A stretch of 64,000 nt of DNA from Deinococcus sp. (GTDB lineage: Bacteria > Deinococcota > Deinococci > Deinococcales > Deinococcaceae), in the NCBI RefSeq assembly GCF_025362455.1, contig NZ_JANYGJ010000095.1, positions 254 to 64,253 on the forward strand, given 5' to 3'. Position 1 is the first letter of the stretch; each line of letters begins with the position of its first letter. Shown here piece by piece: positions 7,727 to 56,620 of this stretch. The notes below the pieces were generated by a model that was given only the letters and a program-made list of their open reading frames with translations, was not told the DNA's origin and did not search any database. The translations under genes were made by a program, and so were the position numbers.

Positions 7727-7740
7727 CTAGAATATATACA
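7727..7740 (-). other. Polar motif copy TGTATATATTCTAG (left orientation)
   Basis: CTAGAATATATACA on the + strand; exact 14-mer shared with 32876 and 56607. Confidence 0.8.
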
Positions 7741-7957
7741 ACAAGTCAAGTATGGATCAAGTATGGACAGAGTGGAGCAGGCCGAGTCAGATCAGGACCT
7801 TCGGATCAGACCTTGCAACTTAAGTTGGTGCGCCGCCGCTAAGCCACCTGGCCAGCCGTCCGCTGCGCCGCCTGGCCGACGCGCCGAGTGCCTCGCCCGG
7901 CGCACCATACTCCTACCAGCCGGAAACCGCTCCCTCCGCTGGCAGGAGAAAGCCCCC

Positions 7958-8140
7958 ATGATCACCGATTTCCATACCTGCGAGTGGGCGGCCCAGGCCC
8001 GCATCGACAGCCTGCGCGACGAGGCGAGTGTGCGCAGAACGCTGCGCCTGCTGAACGCCGCCAAGGCCCCCAGCCTGATCGTGCGCCTCTGGCAGCGCCT
8101 GACCGGCAAGGCCCACCGCGACCAGCCCGCCCCCGCCTGA
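7958..8140 (+). CDS. Small hypothetical protein (60 aa)
   Basis: AGGAG RBS at 7944-7948, then MITDFHTCEWAAQARIDSLRDEA... Confidence 0.65.
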   Translation: MITDFHTCEWAAQARIDSLRDEASVRRTLRLLNAAKAPSLIVRLWQRLTGKAHRDQPAPA

Positions 8141-8218
8141 TGTTCCGCACTGCCCACCCACACGCGGCGAACCCCACCACCCAGGGTTCGCCGCTCGCTT
8201 GCGTTCACATTTACAGGC

Positions 8219-9562
8219 TTACGGGTACATCCGCGTCAGCATCCGGGGAAAGGCGACCGCTTCCCGAATGTGGTCGATGCCGCTGATCCAGGCCACGAAG
8301 CGCTCCAGGCCCATGCCGAAGCCCGCGTGCGGCACGCTGCCGAATCTCCGCAGGTCCAGATACCACTCGAAGGGCTCTAACGGCAGGCCCTGCTCCTCGA
8401 TTCTGTTTTTCAGCAGGTGGTAATCGTGGATGCGCTGCGAGCCGCCGATGATCTCGCCGTAGCCTTCGGGCGCGATCATGTCGTCGCACAGCGCCACGCG
8501 GGGATCGAGTGGGTCCGGCTGCATGTAGAAGGCCTTGATGGCCGCCGGGTAGCGCTCGATCATCACGGGCCGGTCGAACTGGGAACCCACGATGGTCTCG
8601 TGCGGCGCCCCCAGATCCTCGCCCCACGCCACCGGCTGCGTATCCGGTGCCACGTTCGGCGGCAGGTCGCCCGACTCGATCCGGCTGCGGATGATCTCCA
8701 GCGCCTCGGTGTAGGTCACGCGGGGAAAGTGGCCTGACGCAGCCGGGCGCAGCTTATCCAGATCGCGGCCCAGAATGCCCAGCTCCTCGGCGCAGGTCTC
8801 CAGCACCCGGCGCACCACGAAGGCCACCATGTCTTCCTGAAGCTGCATGTTGGCGGCGTGGTCGCTGGGCGCCACCTCCGGCTCGATCATCCAGAATTCG
8901 AGCAGATGCCGCCGTGTTTTACTCTTCTCCGCCCGGAAGGTCGGCCCGAAGGTGTAGACCTTGCCGAAGGCCAGCGCCCCGGCCTCGGCGTGCAGTTGCC
9001 CGGTCTGAGAGAGGTAGGCGCTATTTTCGCCGAACAGATCGATCTCGAACAGCTCGGTGGTGTCCTCGGCGGCGTTGGTAGTAAACAGCGGCGAGTCAAA
9101 GCGGATAAACCCGCGCCCGTGAAAAAAGTCGGCCAGCCCCCGCTGAACGGCGTCCCGCAGCCGCAGCACCGCCCAGGGACGGCGGTGGCGCAACCACAGG
9201 TGCCGGTGGTCTTGCAAAAAGTCGATGCCGTGTTCCTTGGGCGTGATCGGGTACTCGCCGGAGCCGCCCACCACCTCGACGTGGCTCAGCGACAACTCGA
9301 CCCCGCCGGGCGCCCGCTCGTCGGCCCGCACCGTGCCAGTCAACTTTAGGCTGCTTTCCTGGGTCAGGTGTCTGGCGGCCTCGAAGACGTCCTCGCTGAC
9401 GTCGTTTTTGCTCAGCACGCCCTGTACGAAGCCGCTGCCGTCGCGCAGCTTGAGAAATATCAGCTTGCCCTTGCCGGATTTGTCGGTCAGCCAGGCGCTG
9501 AGGGTCACGTCCTGGCCGATGTGCTCACTGAGCTTGGAAATCGGAGTCTGGGTGGAAGCCAT
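8219..9562 (-). CDS. asnS: Asparaginyl-tRNA synthetase
   Basis: OB-fold [40 protein letters not shown] and GFGMGLER motifs; TATACT 7 nt before ATG 9562. Confidence 0.95.
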
Positions 9563-9822
9563 GCCCGACAGTATAGAGAGGGCCAGTCCAGCGGGTGCGG
9601 TGTAGAAGAGGGGGGAGGCCAGCCTAGCGGCACCGGGCTGTGCCTGAGCGACCAAGGCACACTGGCCGCCGCCACACTCAGCCTGGCCTGAGTCCCCGGC
9701 GCCCGGCCCTGAGCGGGGTGAGCGCCACCCGGAGCTGAACGACCATTCTCAACACTCCAATCTCGACCTCTCGATCACAAATAGTCCTACTCGTGATTTC
9801 TTTCGCTGACTCACCCCACAAA

Positions 9823-54771: not shown

Positions 54772-54823
54772 AGCAGGGGTGGTTGGGGCGGGCCAGCGGC
54801 GGCGTTTCACGTGAGCTGGACGG

Positions 54824-56002
54824 GTGAGTTCCGTCGCCGTGCGCGTCGCCGTATATCATCCTGGGCAGCGCCGCTTCGCCTGGCGAGAGATGGTGCTGGG
54901 CGACATTCACCGCGCCCCCTGGCAACTTAGCGCCGCGCTGGGCCTGAACGCCGACTTGCTGCATGACGGCGGGCTGATGTTCGGCGCCCGGAATGCACTG
55001 TTGAGCTTCGAGGCCCGCTCGAAGGCGCTGCCGCCCGGCTGGATGTGGACGAATGAGCCGCCACTACCGCTTCCGGACGCCCGGCCCTGGCAACGGCCCG
55101 GCTGGTTCGCGGGCGCCTGGGCGCGGTTGGGAGCACATTCGGCGACGGGTTCGGCCCGGCTCATCAGCACCTCCGACCTCGGCGCGGTGCTGAGCGTGGG
55201 CGAGGAGGCAGCGCAGGTGTTTCTGAAAGTCGGCGCCGGGCGCGAGGCAGCCGTCACGGCGGCGCTGTGGGCCACGCAACCGAGATGGCTTCCAGCCGTG
55301 TTGAGCACCGACCTGGAGCGCGGCGAGATCATCACTCGCAGCGGTGGGCAGACGCTGGAGAAGGTGGGCGAGTGGCGGGCCTGGACCGGGGCGGCGGCGT
55401 TGCTGGCGAAGTATCACCGCTCGGCGGGCGTGCCGGACGCGGCGCATCACCGCTTTGCAGACCTGCCGGAGCGGGGCGAGGCGCTGCTGCGCGATGAGGC
55501 GGCCTTGAGCGGCTGGGGGCTGAGTGACGCCAATATCAAAGAGCTGGCCGCCGCCCTGCCGGAGTTGAGGCGGCAACACCGGCTGGTAAGCGCCCTGGGA
55601 CTCCCAGACGGCCCGGTCCACGGCGACAGCCACGGGATGAACGCCTTGTGGGACGGTCAACAGGCCCGCTGGTTCGACTGGAGTGAAGCGGGCGTGGCGC
55701 ATCCATTCACCGATATCGGCTGGCTGTTCTCCCATTCGGCAGACCGGACCTGGCCGATTTCGGCGGCGGTGCCCGACCTCCGCGCCCGCCTGGCCGACGT
55801 GTATCTCAGCACTCTGGGGATTCCCGGCGCCCACACCGAACTGGACAGCGCCGAGACGCTGGCACTGTGGCACCGGGCGGTGGTCTACGACGCCCGTTTC
55901 CGGGCCTGGCCGGAGCCGAGGCCAATGTACGTCCGCTTTTACCTCCGGTGGCTGCTGGGTTCGCTGCGGTCACGTCCGGGCGGGATACCATCAGCGCCAT
56001 GA
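54824..56002 (+). CDS. Aminoglycoside-phosphotransferase/choline-kinase-like protein
   Basis: VFLK, VHGDSHGMN and FDWSE..VAHP motifs. Confidence 0.8.
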   Translation: MSSVAVRVAVYHPGQRRFAWREMVLGDIHRAPWQLSAALGLNADLLHDGGLMFGARNALLSFEARSKALPPGWMWTNEPPLPLPDARPWQRPGWFAGAWARLGAHSATGSARLISTSDLGAVLSVGEEAAQVFLKVGAGREAAVTAALWATQPRWLPAVLSTDLERGEIITRSGGQTLEKVGEWRAWTGAAALLAKYHRSAGVPDAAHHRFADLPERGEALLRDEAALSGWGLSDANIKELAAALPELRRQHRLVSALGLPDGPVHGDSHGMNALWDGQQARWFDWSEAGVAHPFTDIGWLFSHSADRTWPISAAVPDLRARLADVYLSTLGIPGAHTELDSAETLALWHRAVVYDARFRAWPEPRPMYVRFYLRWLLGSLRSRPGGIPSAP

Positions 56003-56445
56003 CCTCCCTGTATCTGCTCATCACGGCGCTGATGGCGCTGGCGTTGCTGGGGCTGCTGCTGCGGCCCGGCTCGGTGCGTCCATTGACGCTGTGGCTGTTC
56101 GCGGCGCTGCTGCCGGTGCTGGTCGCCGTCACGGCGGCGCTGCTGAGTCAGCAAAGCGCCCAGGCGGCGCTGGTGGGCTTCGATCCGCAAGTCAGGAACC
56201 GGGGGCTGGGCTGGCGTGATGCGGCGGGCGCCGAGAACACCGCCACCGTGGCGCTGGGTGGCCTGGACGCCGCCTGCGTGGTGCGGGCCAGCGCACGCGG
56301 CGGCACCTACCGCCTGAGCAGCTCGACGCTGTTCGTGCCCCGTGACGTGCAGCTCATCGGCCCCTGGCCCTCCAGTGCCGAGGCCGAGGCGCTGATGGTC
56401 AGCGGCCAGCAGGGCTGCCGGAGACTCAGCGGCAAAGAGAACTGA
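55999..56445 (+). CDS. Hypothetical membrane protein (2 N-terminal TM, two Cys)
   Basis: ATGA overlap with the upstream gene; hydrophobic N-terminus. Confidence 0.65.
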   Translation: MTSLYLLITALMALALLGLLLRPGSVRPLTLWLFAALLPVLVAVTAALLSQQSAQAALVGFDPQVRNRGLGWRDAAGAENTATVALGGLDAACVVRASARGGTYRLSSSTLFVPRDVQLIGPWPSSAEAEALMVSGQQGCRRLSGKEN

Positions 56446-56606
56446 GCGGCAGGGAGAACTGAGTGGCAGGGAGAACTGAGCGTCAAACCGGGCGGCTGGA
56501 CGCCAGGTTCAGGAGGGCTCAATGAACGCCGCGAGCAATGAGTGGAATGCGGCGATCAAGGTCTTCAGACACCTGCATGCCCGCTGCCTATCTATCTCCG
56601 TCTCGT

Positions 56607-56620
56607 TGTATATATTCTAG
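56607..56620 (+). other. Polar motif copy TGTATATATTCTAG (right orientation)
   Basis: Exact 14-mer in the intergenic gap between convergent genes. Confidence 0.8.

Follow-up and report, generated by a model that had tools for sequence, protein, structure and literature searches.

A 13-bp polar word at the chromosome 1 terminus of Deinococcus looks like a new, lineage-restricted terminus site

The 64,000-nucleotide stretch of Deinococcus sp. analysed here (the window; positions 254 to 64,253 of contig NZ_JANYGJ010000095.1, assembly GCF_025362455.1) holds eight copies of a short word, motif A, whose orientation switches around a dif-like site and a gene for a Xer-family tyrosine recombinase. 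Motif A is the 13-bp word TTGTATATATTCT; the names motif B and motif C are kept for different polar words of other Deinococcus lineages. The source genome (G000; other G numbers denote the related genomes compared) comprises 272 contigs and 3.72 Mb. The core genes of the window are lysC, an Asn/Lys-type tRNA synthetase gene, a YbjN/DR1245-like gene, ddrA, aspS and hisS on the left, a lipid kinase gene, the Xer-type recombinase gene and lnt in the centre, and gap-pgk-tpi, smpB, rho, ileS, argS and mnmE on the right.

The four left-hand copies of motif A lie on the minus strand. The outermost (7729..7741) is an exact 13-mer 48 bp past the lysC stop, with convergent genes on either side, and is followed by a degenerate site (AAATATATATTCC, 10398..10410) immediately upstream of the YbjN/DR1245-like gene and in the same direction as it. 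The third copy (AAGTATATATTCT, 17864..17876) has the stop of an oxidoreductase gene on one side and the start of a HAD hydrolase gene on the other, and the innermost (GAGTATATATTCT, 24422..24434) precedes the true hisS ATG (24363) by 59 bp. The four right-hand copies are on the plus strand. The innermost (GTGTATATATTCG, 27324..27336) is found 82 bp past the stop of the recombinase gene, within the last 150 bp of the lnt open reading frame (ORF), a gene in which an earlier note on this DNA had already placed one copy; the next (ATGTATATATTCT, 32875..32887) is 19 bp past the tpiA stop. The remaining two are exact 13-mers, one 11 bp ahead of the ileS ATG (43707..43719; ATG at 43731) and one 30 bp from the mnmE stop, again between convergent genes (56606..56618).

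Between the innermost copies lies the dif-like site (26140..26169), with two 12-bp inverted arms (9/12 complementary), a 6-bp centre, TTTCAC, and the signature ATAA-6 nt-TTATG. It is directly upstream of the recombinase gene (26189..27244, plus strand; Phage_integrase and SAM-like N domains) and is the point on which the polarity switch is centred. The site and its single Xer gene sit between the lipid kinase gene and lnt. Further left, the site at 24422 and a neighbouring plus-strand ATATTCT make up an imperfect palindrome, AGAATAT-6 nt-ATATTCT (7-6-7), which is unique in the genome; the innermost left copy and this adjacent partial copy on the other strand (24422-24441) are in effect a back-to-back pair, minus then plus. 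The palindrome at 24.4 kb was considered as a candidate dif and rejected, since it is peculiar to this genome and missing in relatives.

The earlier note, made from the letters of the window, had listed the word as an 11-mer, GTATATATTCT, and all of its copies were recovered: exact ones at 7729, 17864 and 24422 on the minus strand and at 32877, 43709 and 56608 on the plus strand, with near matches at 27326 (plus, one mismatch) and 10398 (minus, two mismatches, TATATATTC core intact). Near matches included, the left sites are thus all minus and the right sites all plus (4 + 4). A 14-bp sequence, TGTATATATTCTAG, is indeed common to the sites at 7729, 32877 and 56608. The copies are real, but the 11-mer is not the conserved unit. 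When 77 sites, taken from 22 loci, are combined in one matrix, information is found at 13 contiguous positions and none in the flanks, which makes TTGTATATATTCT the conserved word; the sharp edges at 13 bp correspond to the size of one protein footprint. Read 5' to 3', AGAATATATACAA runs toward the centre from either side. The GC (guanine plus cytosine) content of about 68% that the note assumed has to be replaced by 64-70% for the window and 65.5% for the genome; in dinucleotide shuffles 0.01 copies of the 11-mer are expected in the window, and none of 100 shuffles reached seven.

Genome-wide there are nine exact 11-mers, of which six are on the 68.6 kb contig that contains the window (binomial P = 3e-9). 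An even spread of copies, which the note had named as an outcome that would count against it, was not seen. A scan of this contig with the 9-mer core TATATATT[C/A] gave the strand order ----++++. Two further contigs of the same genome, C56 (784/2140) and C247 (8602/8776), carry one divergent pair each.

This confinement is also seen in other Deinococcus genomes. When 111 species of the genus were scanned with T[G/T]TATATATTC, arrays were found in about 20; 12 genomes from other families of the order contained no copy. In two genomes assembled into four contigs (G008 and G013), every 13-mer that is exact or has one mismatch falls within one cluster per replicon. On chromosome 1 of both, 2-4 minus copies are followed by 2-4 plus copies. 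More generally, the opposed groups at the chromosome 1 terminus number 3-4 copies each and keep to about 25 kb on their side of it, with back-up copies at a spacing of 2-15 kb. The secondary replicons (C2, C3 and C4 of G008, C2 and C3 of G013) have a single divergent pair or a small cluster each. The arrangement is the same, with slightly degenerate copies, in close relatives without an exact 11-mer (G004, G061, G075 and G003). Genomes contain 9-15 copies, all of them no more than about 50 kb from the switch or in single pairs.

The polarity is close to invariant. All 22 loci that were retrieved (77 sites) are perfectly sorted, minus copies before plus copies, and so are 33 of the 34 contigs genus-wide that bear both orientations; in the single exception two copies are separated by 354 kb, and the replicon is possibly circular. 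The positions of individual sites, on the other hand, change between species. That of the 10398 site is also occupied in G013, G061 and G003, the interval between the recombinase gene and lnt also holds a site in G013, G061, G075, G003 and G004, and ileS-adjacent sites recur in G008, G083 and G101. Since the orientation rule is kept in all 22 loci despite this turnover of sites, the comparison argues for selection on site orientation relative to the centre.

The switch can be placed on the chromosome in seven relatives that have long or closed chromosome contigs and regions syntenic with the window. Measured from dnaA, it lies at 50.9% of the circle in G013, 51.9% in G008, 52.0% in G004, 51.5% in G003, 53.7% in G075, 52.2% in G061 and 50.5% in G101. 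As the switch is antipodal to dnaA in all seven, the motif A cluster marks the terminus of chromosome 1. The earlier note's central proposal, of a polar, terminus-confined site that inverts at a dif/recombinase locus, is borne out by these positions, and its statement that such a site was not known from Deinococcus agrees with a literature search for the 13-mer in a terminus context, which found no relevant paper among those covered.

GC skew gives no such support. At 25-31 kb of the window it goes from roughly -0.1 to +0.08, and it exceeds the skew of other contigs of the genome several-fold. A change from minus to plus is the sign usual for origins and opposite to that of a textbook terminus, so it cannot be counted in favour of termination here, and relatives do not clearly show the flip. 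It is not used as evidence here. The idea that it raises, that the window is an origin, was rejected: dnaA of the source genome is on a different contig, the window contains no DnaA-box cluster, and in the relatives the switch lies opposite dnaA on the circle.

The note had placed a dif candidate at the switch, and relatives, too, have a dif-like site there. In all six motif A genomes that have it, the dif-like site, with the Xer gene, lies between the innermost minus and plus copies of motif A, in an interval of 2.9-10 kb. The loci with this module are the window, L007, L029-L037 and L062-L064. G013, G061 and G075 share the dif-like site of the window, while G003, G004 and G090 have a second type of arm with the same centre, beside a more divergent Xer copy. 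Arm type and recombinase variant thus change together, with two of each, around a constant 6-bp TTTCAC. In G003 and G004 the recombinase is present as two copies in tandem; in G004 one of them is broken. The protein aligns over its full length with the XerC, XerD and XerA models, with scores below their cut-offs.

Proximity of motif A to this module raises the possibility that the word is a recombinase half-site, i.e. that a Xer-type recombinase binds scattered single arms, unloading SMC as XerD does from its sites (XDS) in Bacillus subtilis, or uses them as accessory sites for dimer resolution. Motif A surrounds the module, and in the clade of G000 one site is less than 100 bp from the end of the Xer gene; tyrosine recombinase genes also abut motif pairs, or lie at most 3 kb from them, on C56 of the source genome, G013 C3 and G008 C4. 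XDS are themselves confined to the terminus and dif-like (PMC11840125). In addition, AGAATATATA is identical to dif of B. subtilis over the inner left arm and the centre. The sequence of B. subtilis dif that the note had used for its match (CTAGAATATATA) is correct, but the match needs a flanking CT that is present in three sites of the source genome only and is not conserved elsewhere. The organism's own dif-like site, with its ATAA/TTATG arms and TTTCAC centre, shares nothing with the 13-mer, no two-arm site containing the word was found in relatives, and strict polarity is no known requirement of XDS.

The distribution of the recombinase also differs from that of the word. In a co-occurrence test confined to the terminus Xer orthologue, the gene was present in 46 of 111 genomes, many of them without the motif, and was absent from motif-bearing G101, G083 and G034; G008 has a paralogue of 52% identity only. 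Because of this mismatch the terminus Xer was rejected as the factor that binds the 13-mer: judged from the genomes compared, the module marks the centre where it is present and does not read the word. Nor does a search of the secondary replicons help, as their centres have no TTTCAC-centred inverted repeat, and the close motif pairs on them have no common dif-like core above shuffled controls. As a reading of motif A, a recombinase site is unlikely but still a serious contender.

The close pairs often met on secondary replicons have a character of their own. They are 0.3-0.8 kb apart and flank non-coding, AT-rich spacers with 44-54% GC, against 61-70% (L012 9640-10150, L014 10122-10865, L016, L017 and L018); no sequence is common to these spacers. 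Inverted repeats around short non-coding DNA are what the ends of a mobile element, such as a miniature inverted-repeat transposable element (MITE), would look like, and an AT-rich word might also recur by chance. Either origin is hard to credit. The spacers are unrelated, conservation stops at 13 bp, the arrays on the chromosome enclose tens of kb of syntenic housekeeping genes, and copies are gathered in one cluster per replicon instead of being dispersed; chance repetition is excluded by the shuffles.

With respect to genes, motif A has no fixed place, as the note had observed. Using a gene call based on GC content at third codon positions (GC3), 33 of 41 sites are intergenic, and the 5' ends of genes, their 3' ends and the gaps between convergent genes hold about equal numbers of sites, on either relative strand. 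Some copies do lie just upstream of genes (hisS, ileS, the HAD hydrolase gene and the YbjN/DR1245-like gene, the last also in G013, G061 and G003), and TATATT is similar to a -10 hexamer, so that an AT-rich promoter, or an operator of a local regulon that owes its polarity to gene orientation, might be considered. About half of the sites, however, are past stop codons or between convergent genes, and they do not keep to one orientation with respect to the gene beside them. Genes usually run in the same direction as replication, but the word is directed away from the terminus. The same word is found on replicons with unrelated neighbour genes, and a regulon cannot account for one cluster per replicon opposite dnaA. 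A transcriptional role of motif A, as promoter, operator or terminator, is thus very improbable.

The YbjN-family gene (9861-10436, minus strand) was examined as a motif-specific factor and rejected, because it is found in 111 of 111 species (71-95% identity; the G077 match is at 1.25 Mb). A motif A site lies just upstream of its start, and co-directional with it, in G000, G013, G061 and G003, and a site of motif A or of motif B is less than 1 kb away in several further species. The lnt gene, which adjoins the innermost motif A sites, matches in at least two separate pieces in G013, G008, G101, G051 and G112 (located at L007 3171-4453 in G013, and also seen at L011 in G008 and L022 in G101); frameshifts or errors of assembly could explain these split matches, as could a true disruption at the terminus. 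Elsewhere in the window, aminoacyl-tRNA synthetase genes are unusually dense between 8219 and 53530 (Asn/Lys-type, a Glu/Gln-type catalytic-domain ORF, aspS, hisS, ileS and argS), and ddrA, of the Rad52/22 family, occupies 16256-16861. Scans of the window for tRNA and Rfam RNA returned none, and small ORFs in the gap at 7.7-8.2 kb have no family match and a weak coding signal.

Other lineages of the genus have other polar words at the same place. Motif B is a composite of about 45 bp, consisting of an A-rich tract, TTCACGA, 9 nt, TCGTGAAT, 3 nt and TTCACTTA. It contains three GTGAA/TTCAC half-sites, the last of which shares TTTCACTTA with the dif-like site, and is on the plus strand to the left of the terminus and on the minus strand to the right. 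In whole-genome scans of G078, G117, G092, G047, G031 and G076, all exact copies are in the chromosome 1 terminus cluster, and in G090, G101 and G083 motif B is nested inside the motif A array; none was seen in the window or on secondary replicons. The loci are L068-L070 (G117 C1, 1.678-1.738 Mb), L074-L076 (G078), L065-L067 (G092), L071-L073 (G047), L038-L040 (G031), L041-L043 (G076), L021-L024 (G101 and G083) and L062-L064 (G090).

Motif C, TTTTATATGAAA, was found in G077, a genome with neither motif A nor motif B. Its five exact copies are all on chromosome 1 (C1), in the order + + / - - - around 1.36 Mb: plus at 1,337,862 and 1,346,367, minus at 1,377,828, 1,382,054 and 1,524,930 (loci L059-L061, 1.329-1.389 Mb). 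With arrays of motifs A, B and C in different lineages, polar terminus arrays seem to be general in the genus, the words changing from one lineage to another.

What acts on motif A might be a DNA pump. FtsK or another translocase could be oriented by, or loaded at, the 13-mer toward the dimer-resolution site, which would make motif A a low-copy, high-specificity analogue of FtsK-orienting polar sequences (KOPS) and SpoIIIE recognition sequences (SRS). Polarity inverts at the dif-like site, the AGAATATATACAA part points to the centre on both arms, in the same sense as KOPS, and a guide of this kind is needed by every replicon, which fits the pair found on every replicon checked. In Deinococcus radiodurans, a 2026 survey failed to identify polarized KOPS or a canonical dif (PMC13342612), and the lack of the former speaks for this reading. 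Yet the words read by FtsK and SpoIIIE are 7-8 bp long, purine/G-rich and present in hundreds of copies with a skew over whole replichores, whereas the 13-mer is rich in A and T, does not exceed 15 copies in a genome and keeps to about 50 kb. FtsK of D. radiodurans, for which E. coli KOPS and dif are the only sites studied, binds GGGCAGGG in vitro (PMC9764985), and GGGNAGGG itself is weakly biased toward the centre in the window. This bias is too weak for GGGNAGGG to be retained as a polar word. Guiding of a translocase by motif A is about as probable as a recombinase site: unlikely, yet still a serious contender.

The reading that we put first, tentatively, is that the 13-mer sites are polar barriers that would form a replication fork trap. 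It is preferred because the sites are few, asymmetric and of high information, stand in opposed groups with back-ups around a central dif, and have an orientation that appears to be selected. Under a fork trap, TTGTATATATTCT would be the binding site of a sequence-specific protein, and the arrays would show where, on every replicon, replication ends and dimers are resolved. Each bound site would act as an orientation-dependent barrier, such that a replisome arriving from the origin would pass the sites on its own side and stop at the opposite ones past the centre. If own-side sites are permissive and far-side sites blocking, forks would therefore fuse within the small central interval that holds the dimer-resolution site, as in Tus-Ter and RTP-Ter. 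The blocking orientation is predicted to be the one in which a fork encounters 5'-TTGTATATATTCT-3' on the strand whose 5'-to-3' sense is that of its travel.

Several observations weigh against a fork trap. The arrays are only 35-50 kb wide, much narrower than in E. coli, and motif A is limited to about 20 of the 111 species scanned. Sites that guide a translocase or are related to SMC would be expected to have just such a geometry. On G013 C2, a 319 kb circle, ParAB genes are about 100 kb from the motif pair, and GC skew and gene-strand bias are flat over the whole replicon and do not place the pair at a terminus; ParB/ParA were found on some replicons only. A terminator protein was also sought. 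Tus (PF05472) had no match at E <= 1 in G000, G008, G013, G101 and G083, with the E. coli control found. For RTP (PF02334) the best score in these five motif-bearing genomes was 21.8 bits, against a cut-off of 26.7, and G000 and G008 gave not even sub-threshold matches. Neither the neighbour genes nor the distribution of Xer or YbjN yielded a candidate binding protein, the families that recur beside sites being syntenic housekeeping genes and some tyrosine recombinases only.

Fork traps are known only from two unrelated lineages, Tus and RTP, and RTP-Ter arose independently of Tus, so that such traps can be reinvented (PMC10331603). It is conceivable, though doubtful, that Deinococcus has a third, independent trap on every replicon, for which different lineages use the site families A, B and C. 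If this were true, fork fusion would be confined to a few kb around the dimer-resolution site in a multipartite, polyploid genome, and the terminator protein and its sites would have undergone rapid co-evolution or replacement. The arrays also make it possible to locate the terminus of each replicon to the base pair in about 20 Deinococcus species, with a dif-like site and a recombinase gene placed at the centre of termini, by which termination, dimer resolution and terminus organisation become directly testable in a polyploid, multipartite, radiation-resistant genome.

Among known systems, the layout of the centre is like that of XerH, XerS and XerA, whose genes adjoin their sites. The few specific sites restricted to the terminus around dif recall XDS and the matS sites of MatP. 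XDS, however, resemble the organism's own dif, whereas motif A is unlike the local dif-like site; it is not derived from the arm of that site and does not follow the distribution of the terminus Xer orthologue. matS is a palindromic 13-mer without polarity, and motif A is asymmetric and strictly oriented. KOPS and SRS are likewise polar words that switch at dif and are needed on every dimer-resolving replicon. The inversion at dif is found here as well; the short, frequent, replichore-wide word is not, since KOPS and SRS are G/purine-rich words of 7-8 bp with hundreds of copies along the replichores, in contrast to 13 AT-rich bp in fewer than 16 copies at the terminus only. A regulon, too, would place its sites in a constant position and orientation relative to genes, and no such constancy was seen.

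RTP-Ter of B. subtilis has opposed Ter groups near the terminus and an inner inverted pair close together, which is also the arrangement of motif A. RTP sites, though, are about 30 bp long and made of two overlapping dimer sites, whereas motif A is informative at 13 positions only, and the 77-site matrix contains no composite of two overlapping imperfect inverted repeats; the composite motif B of other Deinococcus species looks more RTP-like. Tus-Ter of E. coli and its relatives, with the R6K Ter pair, shares opposed groups of asymmetric sites at the terminus, few high-information copies with back-ups, and pairs on extrachromosomal replicons, and a monomer-sized footprint is plausible. In Tus systems dif is reported to lie between the innermost Ter sites (PMC10331603), and in Deinococcus, too, opposed polar clusters flank the terminus with the dif-like site inside the innermost pair. 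The Ter consensus, in contrast, is 23 bp long, compared with a word of 13 bp (TTGTA, common to the two, may be chance), and Ter sites cover a large fraction of the chromosome, compared with arrays of 35-50 kb here. Set beside these systems, the 13-mer looks like a new, lineage-restricted polar terminus site.

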